From contig JBHLLO010000056.1 in assembly GCA_048885535.1 (NCBI GenBank), positions 1 to 20,090 on the forward strand: a DNA stretch of 20,090 nucleotides. The letters run 5' to 3'. The DNA comes from Candidatus Hermodarchaeota archaeon. GTDB taxonomy: Archaea; Asgardarchaeota; Lokiarchaeia; Sigyniarchaeales; SOKP01. The position numbers were made by a program, and so were the translations under genes. Shown here piece by piece: positions 319 through 8,218 of this stretch. Position 1 is the first letter of the stretch. The number at the start of each line of letters is the position of its first letter. The notes under the pieces are model-generated. The model was not told where the DNA came from. It saw only the letters and a program-made list of their open reading frames with translations, and did no database searches.

Positions 319-963
319 ATGGAAATAGACTTTAAAAAAAAAGAAGAACATGAAGCTGTTGTACAAAATAATATAAAAGAAGAATATAAACCTACAGGCT
401 TTTTACAAGATAAATCTAAAAAAATAATTCTTTTAGATCTTCTCTATTCTGTTATTATTGGAGTCATGGGAGGCATAATCTCAAGCCTTATACCTTTTGA
501 TTTATTAATAAAAGTATGGTATCCTTTTACAGGAGGCACCCAATTAGTAAGTGGACATCACGTAATGTGGGCTTCAGTAATATATGGTTTAACTCTAAAA
601 AAGAGAAATATTCTCATAACAATGTTCTCAAAAGGAATAATTGAATTCCTATTTGGAGATTTAACAGGTTTGCTCATTATTTTTGTAAATTTTATGGAAG
701 GAGCTTTCTTATGTGCTGGATTTTATTTTGTGGAAAAAATAGGAGAAGGAAATACTAAATTGGGCTGGGGTATTGCAGGTGGTATTGGTAACTTTTTTCA
801 AGCACCTTTTTTTTGGATTTATTTCGAGCGTTGGACAGTACATTGGATATTATGGGTTCTAGCGTTTATTTTTGCTTTTATCTCAGGGGTTCTCATTACT
901 GGCTTATTAGGTAGAATTATAAAAAATGGATTAATTAAAGCAGGGGTACCAACAACATTTTGA
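319..963 (+). CDS. ECF transporter S component (YkoE-like, group I)
   Basis: 214 aa, about 6 hydrophobic segments, motifs QLVSGHHVMW and KGIIEFLFG, Gly-rich last helix (SGVLITGLLG) ending KAGV. Directly upstream of ECF A and T genes. Confidence 0.8.
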   Translation: MEIDFKKKEEHEAVVQNNIKEEYKPTGFLQDKSKKIILLDLLYSVIIGVMGGIISSLIPFDLLIKVWYPFTGGTQLVSGHHVMWASVIYGLTLKKRNILITMFSKGIIEFLFGDLTGLLIIFVNFMEGAFLCAGFYFVEKIGEGNTKLGWGIAGGIGNFFQAPFFWIYFERWTVHWILWVLAFIFAFISGVLITGLLGRIIKNGLIKAGVPTTF

Positions 964-973
964 TAAGGGGTGT

Positions 974-2794
974 ATTGACCAGATTCCTTTTTCTAAAATC
1001 GCACTTTCTTTTGAAGATTTTTCATTTATCTATGGAAAAGATAAGAAGCAAAAACCATCTGTTTTAAACATTAACTTCCAGCTAAAGGAAGGCGAAACTC
1101 TTGTAATAGCAGGTCCTAGTGGAAGCGGCAAATCTACGTTATCTTATGCCATGAACGGAATCATCCCTTGGAGACAAAAGGGCTTTGTTAAGGGTGACAT
1201 AAAAATATTCGGTAAAAGCTTCTGGGATTATGACTTTTCTGAATTATCTAAAACTGTAGGTCTAGTAAAACAGAATCCTCTTGAACAACTTGTAACATTT
1301 TCAGTTAAAGATGAAATAGCATTTGGATTAGAGAATTTAAATTATCCTAAACAAGAAATTGAATCTAGAGTCGAAGAAGTATCTAAACTAATGGGTATAA
1401 GCCATATTTTGGATCGTTCTATAGAGCAATTAAGTGGTGGACAAAAACAACTTACAATATTGAGTTCATTTTTAGTGATGAATCCAAAAATACTTATTTT
1501 AGATGAACCAATTGCATTTTTAGATCAAGAATCTGAAAGTTTGCTTTTAAATCAGTTAAAGAAGTTAATTAAGTCTAAAGATTTACAATTAACCTTAGTA
1601 ATAATTGAACATCGATTATCTAGAGTTTTAGATATTGCTGATAAGTTATTAGTACTTGATGATATAGGAAAAGTAGCTCTAAAGGGAGAAATAACAGACA
1701 TATTAAAAAACAATTTTGAAAGTCTTAGAGCTTGTAATGTAAGAGTACCATGGTTAATTGAAATATTCGATGAATTAAATAAGGCAACAAAAAGTAGGTT
1801 ACTTATTAAGAATTCAATGAATTTCCAAAATTATTTTAAGCTTATTTCTAATTTAAAACATCAAGATCTAATTTTATTACGTGATATAATTACAAAAAAG
1901 GAAATTCGAGCGGAAGAATTAGAAAAATATGAAAACTTAGAAGAAGTAATAGAATTAGAACAAACATATGTTAAATCCCTCAAACATATGAAATCAATTA
2001 AAATTGACGATTTGGAATCGAGTAAGTCATCTTCCAAAAACAATTCTATTTTGGAAACCAAGAATTTATCGTTTATTTATCCAAATAGTGGTGTTAGTGC
2101 TCTTAACAATCTATCAATTAATATTCAAACAGGTGATTTTGTTGGTCTTGTTGGACCAAATGGTTCAGGTAAAACTACACTTCTCTATTTATTAGCTAAT
2201 TTATATCAGCCAACTTCTGGAGAGATTATCTATAAAAACCAAAATCTGGAAGAAATTAACCCTTATGAGTATGCAAAAAAAGTTGGATTTATTTTTCAAA
2301 ATCCAGAAAATATGATATTCAAATCTACTATAAAAGATGAACTATTATACGCTGCTAAGAATTTTGGAATACTTGGTGAGGTTAATGACAAATATGTGAA
2401 AAAGTTGCTAAATTTAGTCGGTAACGAAAGCCCTATGAAGAATCCTTTCAATTTGAGTTGGGGTCAGAAGAGACGGTTGAATTTAAGTTCAATTTTTGTA
2501 TATAATCCTGAAATTATATTATTAGACGAACCCTTTATAGGGCAAGATCAAAGGACCATAGATTCTCTAATAGAAACTTTATATATTGAAAACAAAAGGG
2601 GTAAAACTATAATTATTTCCTCCCACGATTATCATTTACTATTAAAGTATACCAAAAGGATTATTGAGTTAAATAAGGATGGCACTCTTCAGAATTATGA
2701 TACGAAAAGTAATTATTTTTCTAAACATAGCAATCTTGGACCCATTATTCTATTAAAGGAAATTAACAAGGTGTTAGCGAAGGTTAGAGAATAA
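974..2794 (+). CDS. ECF transporter tandem (double) ATPase, YkoD-like; true start is upstream of the tracked ATG at 1151
   Basis: Frame is open from 935. NBD1 Walker A GPSGSGKST is at 1112-1138, followed by LSGGQKQ, ILDEP, EH. NBD2 has GPNGSGKTT, FQNP, LSWGQKR, LLDEP, SH. Start uncertain (ATT at 974 or 983). Confidence 0.88.
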   Translation: MDQIPFSKIALSFEDFSFIYGKDKKQKPSVLNINFQLKEGETLVIAGPSGSGKSTLSYAMNGIIPWRQKGFVKGDIKIFGKSFWDYDFSELSKTVGLVKQNPLEQLVTFSVKDEIAFGLENLNYPKQEIESRVEEVSKLMGISHILDRSIEQLSGGQKQLTILSSFLVMNPKILILDEPIAFLDQESESLLLNQLKKLIKSKDLQLTLVIIEHRLSRVLDIADKLLVLDDIGKVALKGEITDILKNNFESLRACNVRVPWLIEIFDELNKATKSRLLIKNSMNFQNYFKLISNLKHQDLILLRDIITKKEIRAEELEKYENLEEVIELEQTYVKSLKHMKSIKIDDLESSKSSSKNNSILETKNLSFIYPNSGVSALNNLSINIQTGDFVGLVGPNGSGKTTLLYLLANLYQPTSGEIIYKNQNLEEINPYEYAKKVGFIFQNPENMIFKSTIKDELLYAAKNFGILGEVNDKYVKKLLNLVGNESPMKNPFNLSWGQKRRLNLSSIFVYNPEIILLDEPFIGQDQRTIDSLIETLYIENKRGKTIIISSHDYHLLLKYTKRIIELNKDGTLQNYDTKSNYFSKHSNLGPIILLKEINKVLAKVRE

Positions 2795-3670
2795 TTGAAG
2801 GATAAAAATAAAAGTTTGGATTATAAAAAGTATACATTTGTTTACTTTCCTGGAAATTCTTTTTTTCATAAATTAAATCCCATTTCAAAGATTTTCTTTT
2901 TAATTTTTCTTACCATAATTACATTTTTAATACGCTCTCTGCTTTTTTTAACCTTAATTTTTGTAATTAATGTAATATTTGCCTTATTGAGCAATATTTC
3001 TTTAAAGAATTTAATTAGAAAAACGAGATTTATCCTAATTGTTTTAATTTTTAGTGTTATATTAAATATCTTTTTCAATGCTATTCCAAGTGGTCAAGAT
3101 GTAGTTCTTTTCTATTTATTTAATGTTTCCTTTTTACCAATAAGACGATTAGCTGTATATTATGCATTGAGGGCATTATTTATTATACTTACATTATATA
3201 CCTCAACAATTATATATACTAATACTACTTCTTCTAAAGATTTTGTATATTCTTTATTGAGGTTAAGAATCCCTTACAGATATTGTTTTTCTCTTATGGT
3301 GGGAATCAGATATATCCCTGCCATAGAGCAAGAAGCAAGAACTATTGCTTTAGCTCAAAGAGCACGAGGATTTGGTTTGGGAGGAATTAGGAGTGTAAAG
3401 AAAGCTTATAATCTCATTTTTGAAAGATTAATGTCTACTTTAGTATCAATTCTTAGAAAAGGGCATACAACATCCATTTCAATGGAGAATCGATGTTTTG
3501 GATTATATAAGAAAAGAACCAATTTAATAAAAATCAAATTTAGGACTATAGATATTATTTTTTTAATTGGGTGTGTATGTGTCTTCACGTTTGTTTTATT
3601 ATACACATTCGAAATCTTACTCTTACCTCCCTTTCCTTCTTTATATCAAATATATTTAAGTCTATTTTGA
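2795..3670 (+). CDS. ecfT: ECF transporter transmembrane T component (EcfT/CbiQ family)
   Basis: HKLNPISKI N-terminal motif, several TM segments, TTSSKDF..SL..LRIP, RYIPAI..EA..I..AQRARG and SMENRCF coupling-helix motifs. TTG start immediately after the ATPase stop. Confidence 0.9.
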   Translation: MKDKNKSLDYKKYTFVYFPGNSFFHKLNPISKIFFLIFLTIITFLIRSLLFLTLIFVINVIFALLSNISLKNLIRKTRFILIVLIFSVILNIFFNAIPSGQDVVLFYLFNVSFLPIRRLAVYYALRALFIILTLYTSTIIYTNTTSSKDFVYSLLRLRIPYRYCFSLMVGIRYIPAIEQEARTIALAQRARGFGLGGIRSVKKAYNLIFERLMSTLVSILRKGHTTSISMENRCFGLYKKRTNLIKIKFRTIDIIFLIGCVCVFTFVLLYTFEILLLPPFPSLYQIYLSLF

Positions 3671-3718: not shown

Positions 3719-4591
3719 ATGGTTAACACCTTGGAAATTGTAAAAGAAATACAACTGAAATATCAGATTATAGGAAGAACAACAGAACTAAGAAAAATAT
3801 TACTTGCTAAATCTGTTGGAAAGCACATTTTGATTGAAGGTGAAGTTGGGGTGGGAAAAACTACTATAGCTAGGGCGACATCATCCTACTTCGATATAGA
3901 TTTCTTTAGAATTGATTGCAATGAGGAAACTCTCTCTCATAATCTAGTTGGATATTGGGATCCTCCATTAGTAATTGCGAAGGGGTATATTGAAGAATCA
4001 TATGTCTATGGACCACTTGCTTCTGCTATGTTAAAAGGTGGATGTTTATTCATTAATGAAATTAATAGAATGCCAGAAAGTACCCAAAATTCTTTATTGA
4101 CTTCCTTAGATGAAGGAATAATTGAAATTCCTAAACTGAGAACAATTAAAGCTCATAAGAATTTCTATGTAATCGCAACCCAAAACCCTAGAGCTCATGT
4201 TGGTGTAACAGTTTTAGGAGAAGCTTTAAAAGATAGATTCATATGGATTAAATTAGATTACCAAAGTCCAGAAGAGGAAATCTTAATTATCAAAAAAGAA
4301 GCAAATTTAATTAACTCTAATGAAGACGCAATTGCTAGAGTTTGTCAAAATATTATTCAAATGACAAGAGAAAGTACCTCTATTCGAAGAGGGAGTTCGA
4401 TTAGAGGAGGAATTGATCTTGCGAGATTAATTTTCAATTCAGGAAAAGAATCTAGTACAAGGAATTGGGTGGAAGCAGGGATTATGGCTTTGTACAACAA
4501 AATTGAATTAGAAGATGGAGTTTCTAAATCAAAAACAGAACTTATCACAGACATTATTATTTCTACTCTAAATAAAATGGATTTTCAGTAA
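3719..4591 (+). CDS. MoxR-family AAA+ ATPase (CoxD-like)
   Basis: Walker A GEVGVGKT, GPL, Walker B region LFINEINR, sensor I ATQNP, ALKDRF Arg finger, SIRGG sensor II. Followed by a vWA gene. Confidence 0.9.
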   Translation: MVNTLEIVKEIQLKYQIIGRTTELRKILLAKSVGKHILIEGEVGVGKTTIARATSSYFDIDFFRIDCNEETLSHNLVGYWDPPLVIAKGYIEESYVYGPLASAMLKGGCLFINEINRMPESTQNSLLTSLDEGIIEIPKLRTIKAHKNFYVIATQNPRAHVGVTVLGEALKDRFIWIKLDYQSPEEEILIIKKEANLINSNEDAIARVCQNIIQMTRESTSIRRGSSIRGGIDLARLIFNSGKESSTRNWVEAGIMALYNKIELEDGVSKSKTELITDIIISTLNKMDFQ

Positions 4592-4624
4592 TCGATGATT
4601 TCTCATCAGAAAATTCTGAAGAGA
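4579..4624 (+). other. Candidate -1 programmed ribosomal frameshift signal (G_GAT_TTT plus downstream stem-loops)
   Basis: MoxR ends ATG GAT TTT CAG TAA. The -1 frame is open from 4576 and continuous with the vWA ORF. Hairpins: GATGA-tttc-TCATC (4594-4607) and TCTC-a-TCAGA-aaat-TCTGA-a-GAGA (4601-4624). Confidence 0.5.
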
Positions 4625-4638
4625 TTGAGAATAAACGG

Positions 4639-5703
4639 TTGCATGTAAGGCTAACAGAAAGGATTCCCGATGAAGAAATTTTAAGATATGAAATTATCAG
4701 AAAAGAGCGAAAAAGACCTAATTATTATCAACATTTAGCAAATTCTCTGGATTATAAACAAATTAAGGAACTAACTTATTTAGCTATTGAATATAAAAAC
4801 TTAGAGGCTATTATCGGTTTACTCAAATCAAATGTTTATGCAGCAACTGATGCTCTAGATTGTGACGAGGGTGTTAAATTTTTCGCTGAAAAAGCAAAGG
4901 ATTCAGCAACTTCTATGGCAGAAGTTTACTTTTTTATAAGAAGACCAATATCTGAGAAATATAAAAAAATCTTTAGGCGATTAGCTCGCCAGAGTATATT
5001 AAAAACAGCTTTTAAAATCACTAGTAAAGGTATAAGAGGAAATTATAGAATAACTATCCCACATTATGAAATTGGCACACCAGAATTTGATTTAGATGAA
5101 ACAATTCAGCATAACCCTTTAAAAATACATCAAAAAAGTTTACACTATAATGATATCTATGGAATTAAAAGAAAGCAACAAAAGCGCAAGGTTGTTTTAA
5201 TTTTAGACACGAGCGGTAGCATGTATGGGCGACTACTTCTCAACGCCGCTTTAACTGCTTCCGTACTTGCATATAATATGGAAAAAGAAGATTATGCTAT
5301 AATCTTATTTAACTCAACCGCAATGATTTTGAAAAAGATTGATGAGAAGAAACCTATTGCAACAATCATAGATGATATATTGGACTCTGAAGCAAGTGGT
5401 TTTACAAACATACACATAGGTTTAGAAAAAGGGTTAAAAGAATTGAATAAAGTAAAAAAGGAACCGAGAAATCAATTTGGAATTTTAATAACAGATGGGA
5501 ATTATAATAGAGGTGAAGATCCTTTTCATTTAGCGGAAAGTTATCCGAAATTACATGTGATTGGAATGCCTGCTGAAAATGATGCTGATAGAGGAATTGA
5601 TGCATGTAAGGAAATTGCAAGTAAAGGAAGAGGTAAATTTTATGCTGTAAAAAGCTATAAGGAAATTCCAAGAACACTGATAGAATTATTATCACATAAT
5701 TAA
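4639..5703 (+). CDS. vWA domain protein (CoxE-like / chelatase D-subunit-like vWA), MoxR partner; frame is open from 4576
   Basis: Intact MIDAS: LILDTSGSM, GFTNI, ILITDG. FDLDETI motif precedes the vWA domain. Tracked start is TTG. Confidence 0.88.
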   Translation: MHVRLTERIPDEEILRYEIIRKERKRPNYYQHLANSLDYKQIKELTYLAIEYKNLEAIIGLLKSNVYAATDALDCDEGVKFFAEKAKDSATSMAEVYFFIRRPISEKYKKIFRRLARQSILKTAFKITSKGIRGNYRITIPHYEIGTPEFDLDETIQHNPLKIHQKSLHYNDIYGIKRKQQKRKVVLILDTSGSMYGRLLLNAALTASVLAYNMEKEDYAIILFNSTAMILKKIDEKKPIATIIDDILDSEASGFTNIHIGLEKGLKELNKVKKEPRNQFGILITDGNYNRGEDPFHLAESYPKLHVIGMPAENDADRGIDACKEIASKGRGKFYAVKSYKEIPRTLIELLSHN

Positions 5704-5738: not shown

Positions 5739-6203
5739 ATGGAAAAAATAATGAGATTTGCTAATGAAGACGATTTTGAACTTTTAAAAGAGATGTACCT
5801 AAACGAAGTTGAAAAACACGAACGAAGCGCAATAAAATTCGCAGAAGATTTGATTTTTAGATTAAGAACAATTATTTGTGTCGCTAATTTTAAAGTAATT
5901 GGAACTGTATCTTGGGATACTCGTGGTGGATTAAGTGACGGAGTTATTGAATTAATTGGTCTGGGAGTAGCTAAAGATTATAGAAAGCAAGGAATTGGAA
6001 GAGAACTTGTATTAACTTGTATAAATGAAGTAAAAAAGTTTTTTAAACTCGAAGGTTATAAATTAAGAGTTACATACCTATTTATGGAAAGACAAAACAA
6101 TGAAGGTCGTATGTTTTATACAAATATAGGCTTTCATGAAGTATCAATCATACCAGCTTTCTATCCACAAGATGATGCGACATTGTGGATAAAATATTTC
6201 TAG
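5739..6203 (+). CDS. GNAT family N-acetyltransferase
   Basis: Acetyl-CoA motif LGVAKDYRKQGIGRELV and N..G..FY..IGF. Purine-rich RBS (aagggga) upstream. Confidence 0.9.
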   Translation: MEKIMRFANEDDFELLKEMYLNEVEKHERSAIKFAEDLIFRLRTIICVANFKVIGTVSWDTRGGLSDGVIELIGLGVAKDYRKQGIGRELVLTCINEVKKFFKLEGYKLRVTYLFMERQNNEGRMFYTNIGFHEVSIIPAFYPQDDATLWIKYF

Positions 6204-6505: not shown

Positions 6506-8218
6506 ATGAAAAATATAGAAATCGCTAAGATTCTCTATGAAATTGCTGAGCTTCTAGAGTTCAATGAAGTAGAATATAAACCAAGAGCATATAGAAGAGC
6601 TGCCCAAAATATAGAGATGCTAACTGAAGATATTGAAAGTTTATATAAAAAAGGGAGCTTAGATGATATTCCTGGAGTAGGAAAGAGTATAGCATTAAAA
6701 ATACAAGAATACATTGAGACAGGGGAATTAAAATATTTAAATGATTTAAGGAGTCAAGTCCCTAATGGTTTACAGGATTTGTTAAGAGTGGAAGGAATTG
6801 GTCCAAAAACAGCACAGATCTTATATAAAGAACTTGCAATTAAGAATGTTGATGAATTAGAATTTGCTATTAAGAAAGGTAAGTTAAAAAATATTAAAGG
6901 CTTTGGAAAAAAAAAGGGAGAAAATCTTCTTAAAGCAATAGAACTATTCAAAACATCCCAAGATAGATTCCTGTTAGGAGAGATCTTGCCTATTGCTAAA
7001 AATATAAAATCAAAATTAGAAAGTTTAAAAACAGTTATTAAAGTTGAATTTGCTGGTTCTATCAGGAGAAGGAAAGAAACAGTAGGAGATATAGATCTTT
7101 TGGTTGTTTCTAAACAACCTAAAAGTGTTATGGAGTTTTTTATTAAATTACCGGAAAAAAAGAATATTATTTCAAGTGGAGAGATAAAAAGCACAATTGT
7201 TCTCAGTAATAATGTTCAGGTTGATTTAACTATTGTTGAAGATTCTAGCTTTGGTTCAGCGCTTCAATATTTTACTGGATCAAAGGAACATAATATTCAA
7301 TTAAGGAAATTAGCCAAAAAAAGTAATATGAAACTAAATGAATTTGGCCTTTTTAATTTAAGCGATAACAAAAAGATTGCTGGCGCTGAAGAGACAGAGA
7401 TTTACAAATTATTAGGTTTAAGTTACATTCAGCCAGAGTTAAGAGAAAATCGTGGAGAGATAGATTTGGCAAGGCTCAAAAAACTTCCAAAGTTAATAGA
7501 ACTTAAAGATATTAAAGGAGACTTACACATTCATACAGATTGGAGTGATGGTTCTAATTCAATTGAAGAAATGGCTATAACCGCCAAACATTTAGGATAT
7601 GATTACATTTCTATTTGTGATCATTCGAAGACTCTAAAAATTGCAGGGGGGTTAAATGAAAACGATTTAAAAGTTCAGATGGCTGAAATCGAAAAAATTA
7701 ATCGTAAATTAGAAGATTTTAGAATTCTATCGGGTATTGAGGCCAATATTGATACAAATGGGAATTTAGACTTAAAAGATTCTATATTAAAGGATTTGGA
7801 CTTTGTAGTTGCTAGTATTCATTCTGGCTTTAAACAGAGTGAGCAGTTTTTAATTAAAAGAGTTTTAAATGCAATGCATAATGATTATGTTAATTGTATT
7901 GGTCATCCCTCTGGAAGAATAATTAACAAGAGAGCACCAGCTATCTTAAATTTCTCTGATATATTTGATGAAGCTGAAAAACTCAATGTATTTTTAGAAA
8001 TTAATGCTTTTCCTGATCGTCTAGATTTATCTGATCTCAATTGCTTTAAGGCAAGAGAACGTGGTATTTTCCTTTCGATCGGTAGTGATGCTCATAATCT
8101 TAATCAATTGAACTTTATGGATTATGGTGTTAATGTGGCTAGGAGAGGTTGGTTAGAAAGTAAAATTATAATAAATACGATGAATCTAAAACAATTAAAG
8201 AAAGTCTTAGGACTTTAA
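6506..8218 (+). CDS. polX: DNA polymerase X / PHP-domain 3'-5' exonuclease
   Basis: AYRRAA, HhH motifs (IPGVGKSI, VEGIGPKT, IKGFGKK), GSIRR..ETVGDIDLL, VQVDL, YFTGSKEHN, PELRE. PHP motifs DLHIHTDWSDG, DHS, GIE, GHP, SDAH. Confidence 0.96.
   Translation: MKNIEIAKILYEIAELLEFNEVEYKPRAYRRAAQNIEMLTEDIESLYKKGSLDDIPGVGKSIALKIQEYIETGELKYLNDLRSQVPNGLQDLLRVEGIGPKTAQILYKELAIKNVDELEFAIKKGKLKNIKGFGKKKGENLLKAIELFKTSQDRFLLGEILPIAKNIKSKLESLKTVIKVEFAGSIRRRKETVGDIDLLVVSKQPKSVMEFFIKLPEKKNIISSGEIKSTIVLSNNVQVDLTIVEDSSFGSALQYFTGSKEHNIQLRKLAKKSNMKLNEFGLFNLSDNKKIAGAEETEIYKLLGLSYIQPELRENRGEIDLARLKKLPKLIELKDIKGDLHIHTDWSDGSNSIEEMAITAKHLGYDYISICDHSKTLKIAGGLNENDLKVQMAEIEKINRKLEDFRILSGIEANIDTNGNLDLKDSILKDLDFVVASIHSGFKQSEQFLIKRVLNAMHNDYVNCIGHPSGRIINKRAPAILNFSDIFDEAEKLNVFLEINAFPDRLDLSDLNCFKARERGIFLSIGSDAHNLNQLNFMDYGVNVARRGWLESKIIINTMNLKQLKKVLGL

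Follow-up and report, generated by a model that had tools for sequence, protein, structure and literature searches.

How the second of two overlapping genes is translated when it lacks a recognizable start of its own is the question raised by one locus in a stretch of 20,090 nucleotides (nt) of archaeal DNA, hereafter the window (Candidatus Hermodarchaeota archaeon, assembly GCA_048885535.1, contig JBHLLO010000056.1, positions 1 to 20,090 of the forward strand). At this locus an open reading frame (ORF) for an AAA+ ATPase of the MoxR class is overlapped, in the -1 frame, by a frame that encodes a von Willebrand factor A (vWA) domain. A preliminary description of the window proposed that some ribosomes slip back by one base near the end of the first gene and that the locus therefore produces both MoxR and a MoxR-vWA fusion. 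The comparative evidence presented here supports that proposal. We consider it probable that the locus carries a programmed -1 ribosomal frameshift site, conserved across the Asgard phylum, which would yield a short ATPase and an ATPase-vWA fusion. The source genome comprises 3.09 Mb in 112 contigs with a GC content of about 29% and an estimated completeness of 91.6%; the window lies on contig 56, and the sequencing runs that contain the stretch are sediment metagenomes.

The MoxR ORF occupies positions 3719..4591 of the forward strand and encodes 290 amino acids (aa) with clear Pfam matches (AAA_5, E 7.8e-22; AAA_3, E 1e-18) and a Walker A motif, GEVGVGKT, at about 3839-3862. Its 3' end reads AAA ATG GAT TTT CAG TAA. 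This places the heptamer G_GAT_TTT (4579..4585, forward strand) in the 0-frame register of a slippery site, with GAU as the P-site codon and UUU as the A-site codon, and puts the TAA stop (4589..4591) one sense codon past the heptamer, where it may be a component of the signal. The -1 frame has a TAA of its own at 4573..4575, opens directly after it at 4576, and contains no further stop until 5701-5703. A slipped ribosome would thus read 372 codons and a stop from 4585..5703 on the forward strand, covering a linker, a helical domain and the vWA domain. The unshifted product is 290 aa long, and the predicted trans-frame product is 289 + 372 = 661 aa. The preliminary description had given the same heptamer and register, the same opening of the -1 frame with its run into the vWA ORF, and the same two product sizes, all of which were recovered when the letters of the window were read again and the lengths recomputed. 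On slipping, the A-site tRNA-Phe re-pairs fully on UUU, and the P-site tRNA-Asp re-pairs at two of three positions on GGA. The window alone proves nothing, because a loose version of this end pattern occurs in 306 of the 2300 ORFs of at least 150 aa (13.3%) in this AT-rich genome. The significance of the site lies in its conservation over 83 loci.

That conservation was assessed with 86 loci that hold both genes and represent 21 families: the window's own family contributes 29 loci, the remainder of its class 19, and other classes 38. Three genomes assembled as single contigs in the window's order (G044, G050 and G055) carry the arrangement. Left out of this set were L028, whose contig ends before MoxR, L048-L050, which are paralog regions, and L091, which is another locus; L092-L097 were treated apart, and paralogous pairs of a 313-aa MoxR and an 833-aa vWA protein were excluded from all counts. 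The vWA frame is widespread in the phylum. Used as a query, it found a match in 58 of 61 relatives at E <= 0.001, paralogs included, and 183 of 301 genomes of the phylum matched at E <= 1e-30, with open frames of 296-397 aa among the matches listed. There were 37 weaker matches among the 301, and five of those genomes were searched again. Named database relatives of the vWA protein come from metagenome-assembled genomes of Promethearchaeota, Lokiarchaeota, Thor-, Hermod- and Hodarchaeota, all of them Asgard archaea, the group to which the source organism is accordingly taken to belong. The vWA gene lies in the -1 frame of MoxR at 83 of the 86 loci, and these 83 span 20 families.

Every one of these 83 loci carries an in-register U-rich heptamer near the MoxR stop, and in every one the MoxR protein ends in the pattern ..[D/N/H/G..]F(x)stop. 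The heptamer found in the window, G_GAT_TTT, is also the most common (36 loci), followed by A_AAT_TTT (16), T_TTT_TTC (9), A_GAT_TTT and T_TTT_TTA (5 each), G_GGT_TTT (3), and C_CAT_TTT and A_AAT_TTC (2 each); T_CAT_TTT, C_CCT_TTT, C_CTT_TTT, T_TTT_TTT and A_AAC_CCT occur at a single locus each. Among these thirteen variants, the fully canonical pattern X_XXY_YYZ accounts for 38 of the 83 loci. The core that the sites share is a U_UUY slip in the A site, combined with a P site that either re-pairs fully (A_AAU, G_GGU, C_CCU or U_UUU) or is of the G_GA type. The position of the 0-frame stop is similarly constrained. It follows the heptamer after one sense codon at 56 loci, immediately at 25, and after two and five codons at one locus each, so that it lies within 0-1 codons at 81 of 83.

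Codon usage at the site provides evidence of a different kind. The P-site NNY codon ends in T at 77 of 78 loci, compared with the 55.5 that the NNY usage of the individual loci would predict, and even a locus of 63% GC, in which only 13% of NNY codons end in T, reads GAT TTT TTC. In the window's family, the codon before GAT occurs in seven variants (ATG, CTG, GTG, GCG, TCG, ACG and TTG) and ends in G in 26 of 29 members, compared with 12% G at third positions genome-wide. In one of the three exceptions both bases have changed together, giving A_AAT_TTT. These three synonymous choices favor the slippery pattern, which indicates that conservation of the site is in part a matter of the RNA.

The vWA frame lacks a conserved start. 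Its first ATG, GTG or TTG in the window is the TTG at 4639..4641 (forward strand), which the ORF finder took as the start, and neither GGAGG nor GGTGA is present in the 40 nt preceding it. The preliminary description had remarked on exactly this, a TTG as the only start and no clear GGTGA or GGAGG. Both features are there, but the TTG is an internal Leu codon and not a start. Over the 29 family members the corresponding column reads TTG in 4, TTA in 5, CTT in 14, CTC in 4, and CTG and CTA in 1 each, and is therefore something other than TTG in 25 of 29. The Arg that precedes this Leu is kept through six codons (CGG, AGG, AGA, CGA, CGC and CGT). Because both residues are maintained through synonymous codons, the -1 frame is evidently coding upstream of TTG 4639.

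The same holds beyond the family. Counting from the MoxR stop, the vWA frame is free of ATG, GTG and TTG up to +30, +60, +90 and +150 nt at 69, 51, 37 and 24 of the 83 loci, respectively, and the first such codons scatter from -280 to +326 relative to that stop. Conservation of the amino acids in the -1 frame starts at the heptamer, and tblastn alignments in the window's family start at residue 1-3 of the open frame. Public gene calls for the vWA protein range from 296 to 367 aa, a variation to be expected if gene callers choose arbitrary starts. The ATG contained in GATGA was also considered as a vWA start in the window and was rejected, since it is in frame with MoxR and is followed by an open stretch of just 17 codons. 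Because there is no start codon, the vWA part would in most lineages be made only as a fusion.

Some relatives encode the joined protein outright. In family f25 (L093 and L094), single in-frame ORFs of 724 and 732 aa read ..FFR.. through the equivalent place. An exhaustive representative search listed 150 matches, of which 28 are at least 519 aa long and match at their C-terminal end; ten of these 28 (584-711 aa) were scanned, and all ten consist of AAA_5 plus VWA. The 711-aa homolog P0160 is 51% identical to MoxR residues 1-289, through the ..DF end, and 31% identical to residues 41-364 of the vWA frame. One fused form is labelled Thermoplasmata archaeon. A word-index search of proteins of 658-2000 aa returned no fusion at E <= 1e-10, a false negative in view of the fusions that the exhaustive search found. 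In-frame AAA_5-vWA ORFs of 588 and 648 aa are also present at L095 and L097, with 35-37% identity to MoxR; being more distant, these may be paralogous.

Other relatives have the two genes apart. In families f32 (L055, L059 and L085) and f23 (L092) the offset is +1, the vWA gene has a conserved ATG, and the acidic linker is missing. MoxR is a few residues longer there (..FFRAK, ..FFRAIAKT), and a run of 6-8 T is retained. The loci with a +1 offset are exactly those with a conserved vWA ATG, and their appearance suggests that an ancestral frameshift layout has turned into ordinary split genes. On the sequences compared, a single gene family thus occurs in three states, frameshifted, fused and split, as is the case for chlD. 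All four comparative signs that the preliminary description had named as support are present: a conserved -1 offset, a conserved heptamer, the lack of a conserved vWA start, and in-frame fusions in some genomes. The paralogous pair has an ordinary arrangement of its own: at L048 (G018:C23:4300-8300), the 313-aa MoxR and the 833-aa vWA protein are separated by a 14-nt gap, and the second begins with an ordinary ATG. Open frames of this paralog type, about 830-860 aa long, are present in most relatives; in the window's own genome, none was matched with the vWA query.

The most durable alternative to frameshifting is that the locus simply encodes two separate proteins, the vWA protein being started by termination-reinitiation or from a non-canonical start near the MoxR stop, with the U-rich end of MoxR representing no more than a conserved C-terminal ..DF motif in an AT-rich genome. 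Several observations lend weight to this explanation and count against a frameshift. The f32 and f23 families make vWA from its own ATG, which means that a free vWA protein is workable. Six loci have a TTG that overlaps the stop (TTTTGA), so that coupling is possible there, and in the window's family the -1 frame across the stop reads ATA ATC, both near-cognate codons. The Phe at the site is also kept in the in-frame fused forms (..FFR..), and conservation of UUU is for this reason partly a matter of the protein. The frequency of the loose end pattern among long ORFs, given above, belongs on the same side.

The scarcity of starts tells against this alternative at most loci, given that no start, canonical or near-cognate, is conserved and that 69 of 83 loci have none of the three usual codons up to +30 nt. 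The codons at the place of ATA ATC are TTA ATC, GTA ACC or CTA GGG in other families. An independent vWA start is also at odds with amino-acid conservation that begins at the heptamer. Coupling would tolerate various offsets, yet the offset is -1 at 83 of 86 loci and differs only where an ATG is present. The synonymous preference for a slippery pattern (77 of 78 against 55.5 expected) also speaks against separate translation, and the in-frame fused orthologs indicate that the joined protein is a real form. We therefore regard two independently translated proteins as improbable.

The evidence for a stimulatory RNA structure downstream is more mixed than that for the site itself. The preliminary description had pointed to a GATGA/TCATC hairpin, which is indeed present in the window (4594-4598 with 4603-4607) but is not conserved in relatives. 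It was rejected as a stimulator: its central pair occurs in 1 of 27 relatives with letters there, and its paired cells (63%) are no better than those of slid controls (33-79%). A larger, imperfect hairpin is predicted at 4592..4630 (forward strand), beginning 6 nt past the heptamer and composed of an outer stem UCGA/UUGA, an inner stem UCUCU/AGAGA and an apical stem. In the window's family, 87% of its cells are paired compared with 34-56% in slid positions, and 15 cells have changed on both sides compared with 6.2 in shuffles, figures that are weakened by the hairpin having been derived from the same sequences used to count pairing. RNAalifold on the family alignment gives a weak consensus of -3.9 kcal/mol with two pairs showing double changes.

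Over all 83 loci the signal is broader. The 50 nt from the stop region fold with a mean of -10.2 kcal/mol, compared with -5.6 in five control windows of the same genes; the mean z score is -1.29, compared with -0.13 for the controls; and at 78 of 83 loci the downstream fold is lower than its own controls. Stem sequences vary from family to family (for example GGAGGA/UCCUCC, GGGAAUUC/GAAUUCCC and GGCUC/GAGCC), and the 3' arm is directly followed by a conserved GAUGA, which codes for the linker motif [S/P]-D-[D/E]. Measured from the heptamer, pairing starts at a median distance of 6 nt. A stimulatory downstream structure is accordingly graded as likely but not established from these comparisons.

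Several further points weigh against frameshifting. The window's own heptamer is not a perfect X_XXY, since G_GAU departs from that pattern, and the sites A_GAU_UUU (5 loci) and U_CAU_UUU (1 locus) offer poor re-pairing in the P site. The downstream fold of the window itself (-11.2 kcal/mol, z -1.34) is equalled by 18 of 200 shuffles, and the spacing of the structures varies, with the first paired base 4-10 nt past the heptamer at only 40 of 83 loci. The 83 loci also share ancestry, and the counts made on them are of non-independent events.

A second alternative places the event in the message and not in translation. The RNA polymerase would slip on the T run and add one U, and in a fraction of the mRNAs MoxR and vWA would then share one frame. 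For chlD, runs prone to slippage are a known alternative to ribosomal shifting. According to the account in PMC3711429, shifting in the chlD family increases with the length of the A run. In support of this alternative, some lineages carry runs of 6-8 T (T_TTT_TTC at 9 loci, T_TTT_TTA at 5 and T_TTT_TTT at 1 of 83). Against it, the window and at least 60 of the 83 loci have only four T, far below the run lengths associated with polymerase slippage. The features that depend on register fit a ribosomal event instead, namely the G or matching base before the P-site codon, the stop 0-1 codons on and the downstream hairpin, and no contig has an indel at 4579-4591, an observation that concerns contigs only. 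An edited message is for these reasons very improbable.

The contigs referred to are those of three other samples of one study, and they cross the junction without gaps: Logan contig X2 record 6 matches 4400-4644 with 0 differences, X3 record 10 matches 4307-4644 with 0 differences, and X4 record 18 matches 4300-4642 with 1 difference. The sole indels seen, at 4605-4612, belong to contigs of relatives. An error of sequencing or assembly that shifted the frame, like the decay of a once-fused gene into a pseudogene, can thus be dismissed as next to impossible, because although in-frame fused relatives exist and the loss of one base would mimic the picture in one genome, the same offset and site recur at 83 loci in 20 families with 35-92% protein identity, both halves are intact and without internal stops, and three samples agree across the junction. 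An RNA run yielded a single contig, which covers 4775-4900 only. In three sediment runs, the summed depth of relatives' contigs is up to about 20-fold higher at 4573-4635 of the window, because this block is nearly invariant at the nucleotide level among co-occurring relatives.

With ribosomal frameshifting as the preferred explanation, the properties of the region reached by the shift become relevant. Directly after the shift site is an acidic linker (4585..4653, forward strand) that is predicted to be disordered, with AlphaFold2 assigning a pLDDT (predicted local distance difference test) below 50 to residues 1-16 and 19-26 of the open frame. An all-helical domain precedes the vWA fold (4663..5025, forward strand), with helices within residues 32-149 and pLDDT values mostly of 84-97 for the block. 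The vWA domain itself (5041..5700, forward strand) has an intact metal ion-dependent adhesion site (MIDAS) motif, with DxSxS at 5206-5220. The Pfam VWA model matches residues 206-365 of the second ORF (E 6.8e-10), and the MIDAS residues D211, S213, S215, T277 and D307 are invariant in 27 sequences. The AlphaFold2 model of the vWA frame, built on a 27-row alignment, has a mean pLDDT of 85.3. Its Foldseek matches are BatB-type vWA proteins and the VWA domain of NorD from NorQ-NorD complexes (E about 2e-7). The linker motif [S/P]-D-[D/E] (GAUGA in the RNA; about 4591-4600 in the window) is kept across the phylum directly past the hairpin. In the window's family it comes immediately after the stop, because the linker is shorter there.

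Solved structures related to the AAA+ half include the bacterial MoxR structure 2r44, NorQ, CbbQ and the AAA domains of midasin. The match to 2r44 scores 60.2 bits, and matches to NorQ and CbbQ by sequence have E values of 2e-7 to 1e-5. The nearest NCBIfam models are GvpN and MadB, both far under cut-off (for GvpN, TIGR02640, 69 bits compared with 266.8). At the Walker B position (4055-4060) the protein reads ..LFINEINR.., with Asn-Glu where the AAA+ norm is Asp-Glu. P0160 and P0148, both of them fused homologs, share this INE.

From these parts a mechanism can be proposed. Most ribosomes would read GAU, UUU and one further codon, arrive at the stop and release the 290-aa ATPase. A fraction would slip back by one base on G_GAU_UUU and continue through an acidic, disordered linker of about 25 residues, the helical domain and the MIDAS-bearing vWA domain to produce a minority of 661-aa fusion. 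A stop one codon ahead that is slow to clear, together with the downstream hairpin, would probably promote the slip. In its AAA+ part the long chain would not differ from the 290-aa subunit. The analogy of ChlI/ChlD and NorQ-NorD suggests that the fusion would join a MoxR ring by way of this part, with the vWA adaptor held to the ring by a flexible acidic tether. Of these elements, the anatomy of the locus, its conservation, the missing start and the fused orthologs are observed; the slip and its efficiency, the parts played by stop and hairpin, and the mixed ring are inferred.

A bolder version of this proposal, which we regard as doubtful, treats the frameshift as a device for stoichiometry. 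A MoxR hexamer would carry about one subunit bearing an acidic tail and a MIDAS domain, giving the topology of midasin in the archaeal phylum closest to eukaryotes. Under such a scheme evolution would have set the ratio of tail to ring differently in each of the three states, frameshifted, fused and split, and the MIDAS site could have an internal pseudo-ligand in the [S/P]-D-[D/E] motif of the linker.

Known clients of MoxR-class AAA+ proteins with a vWA partner are NOR, Rubisco and the gas vesicle. At the MoxR-vWA loci no neighbor gene conserved across families was found; the largest cluster of flanking ORFs has 13 members from 12 loci of one family. Upstream in the window, on the same (forward) strand, is a transporter module of the energy-coupling factor (ECF) type at 319-3670, which is not conserved beside the pair in other families. 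Its first gene (319-963) encodes a small membrane protein that matches ABC_cobalt weakly, its second (1151-2794) a double ABC ATPase in fused form, and its third (2795-3670) a CbiQ/EcfT-like protein that starts with a TTG directly adjoining the stop of the ATPase gene. Downstream of the pair are genes for a GNAT acetyltransferase (5739-6203) and a PolX-type polymerase with a PHP domain (6506-8218). A GNAT gene follows the pair at 12 loci, all in the window's family, and six loci from only three families (L064, L066, L069, L070, L077 and L083) have a gene with a PhoU domain upstream in the same orientation. Elsewhere in the source genome, a second frameshift candidate on contig C54 (A_AAA_AAG before a stop) was rejected as an ordinary small-GTPase gene with its own ATG. 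On the minus strand of contig C48, an ORF ends ..TTA TTT TTG CGC TAG, and its -1 frame stays open for 247 codons past the stop with the first start at +65.

If the proposed frameshift is real, a site present in 20 Asgard families would be the broadest case of -1 frameshifting in an archaeal cellular gene. The thirteen heptamers, the placement of the stop, the lineage-specific hairpins, and the fused and split forms as controls would together amount to a natural mutagenesis series for slippage by archaeal ribosomes, which are the ribosomes nearest to those of eukaryotes. Public annotation, with its arbitrary starts (the 296-367 aa calls mentioned above), misses the predicted 661-aa product. No earlier report of MoxR-vWA frameshifting in Asgard archaea was found in a literature search that reached few subscription journals; a MoxR cluster may be among those tabulated in the supplement to PMC3711429.

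The preliminary description had invoked two precedents, viral sites of the G_GA type and the frameshifting of chlD, and both are in print (PMC5009743; PMC3711429). For the first, a 2016 review by Atkins and colleagues (PMC5009743) presents G_GA as a known X_XX variant in umbraviruses and dianthoviruses. The same review describes pea enation mosaic virus RNA2 (PEMV2), in which G_GAU_UUU is followed by one codon and a stop; the stop is required, and shifting drops strongly when a sense codon takes its place. The window shares with PEMV2 the heptamer and a 0-frame stop 3 nt on, and a 3' stem-loop like that of the virus is predicted for it. The viral cases differ in that PEMV2 and the dianthoviruses are plant RNA viruses that use eukaryotic ribosomes and a long-distance RNA interaction, whereas the window holds a cellular archaeal gene whose heptamer varies by lineage.

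Among archaeal cellular genes, the account in PMC8211752 gives fucA1 of Sulfolobus (Saccharolobus) solfataricus as the only proven -1 frameshift, with chlD in Methanococcales as a proposed one. The two cases are alike in that an archaeal cellular gene would be expressed by -1 frameshifting at a heptamer with flanking elements (PMC8211752). They differ in that fucA1 is split in single strains and full-length in close relatives, and uses the heptamer A_AAA_AAT, whereas the MoxR-vWA site is conserved phylum-wide and yields a short product that amounts to an entire functional domain.

The proteins themselves resemble those of the NorQ-NorD and CbbQ-CbbO systems, in which a MoxR-class AAA+ ring works with a vWA adaptor: the window, too, pairs an ATPase bearing a Walker A motif with a vWA protein, and the MIDAS motif of the latter is intact. 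In those systems, however, each protein has an ordinary start and is made on its own, as in the paralogous pair of 313 and 833 aa from a close relative. Eukaryotic midasin (Rea1/Mdn1) comes to mind because its single chain holds AAA_5-type modules and an acidic region and ends in a MIDAS domain. That chain is about 4900 aa long and contains six fused modules, whereas MoxR contributes one AAA module per chain. Special kinship with midasin had been suggested by the best match in the PDB (E 2.6e-39) and was rejected, because the score is summed over six modules and the best single module gives 40.6 bits, less than the 60.2 bits to bacterial MoxR. The resemblance is one of layout only.

The closest parallel in gene expression is chlD, for which -1 frameshifting yields a short AAA+ subunit and a long AAA+-linker-vWA subunit in both archaea (Methanococcales) and bacteria, according to Antonov et al. 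2013 (PMC3711429) and Kuznetsov et al. 2022 (PMC9227772). As in those accounts of chlD, the AAA+ ORF and the ORF ending in vWA overlap in the -1 frame, and fused single-ORF relatives exist. The gene pair in the window is not a chelatase, however. Its AAA+ protein is of the AAA_5/MoxR family and not ChlI/ChlD: the BchD-ChlD model TIGR02031 scores 18.1 bits on MoxR compared with a cut-off of 499.55, TIGR02442 scores 24 bits compared with 779, and the PF01078 match covers only residues 16-54. CobN/ChlH (PF02514) was not found in the source genome, which is incomplete as stated above, in a search whose controls matched in 5 of 14 genomes. Membership of the pair among the chelatases was rejected on these grounds. 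The signals differ as well, because chlD uses a poly-A run of the type A_AAA_AAR, which is found at none of the 83 heptamers, and the window has a U-rich heptamer with a nearby stop. What is new relative to chlD is therefore a different AAA+ family, a different signal and a different lineage, that of the Asgard archaea. The comparison suggests that recoding as a way to tether vWA adaptors to AAA+ rings has evolved on two occasions, once in chelatases and once in MoxR systems.

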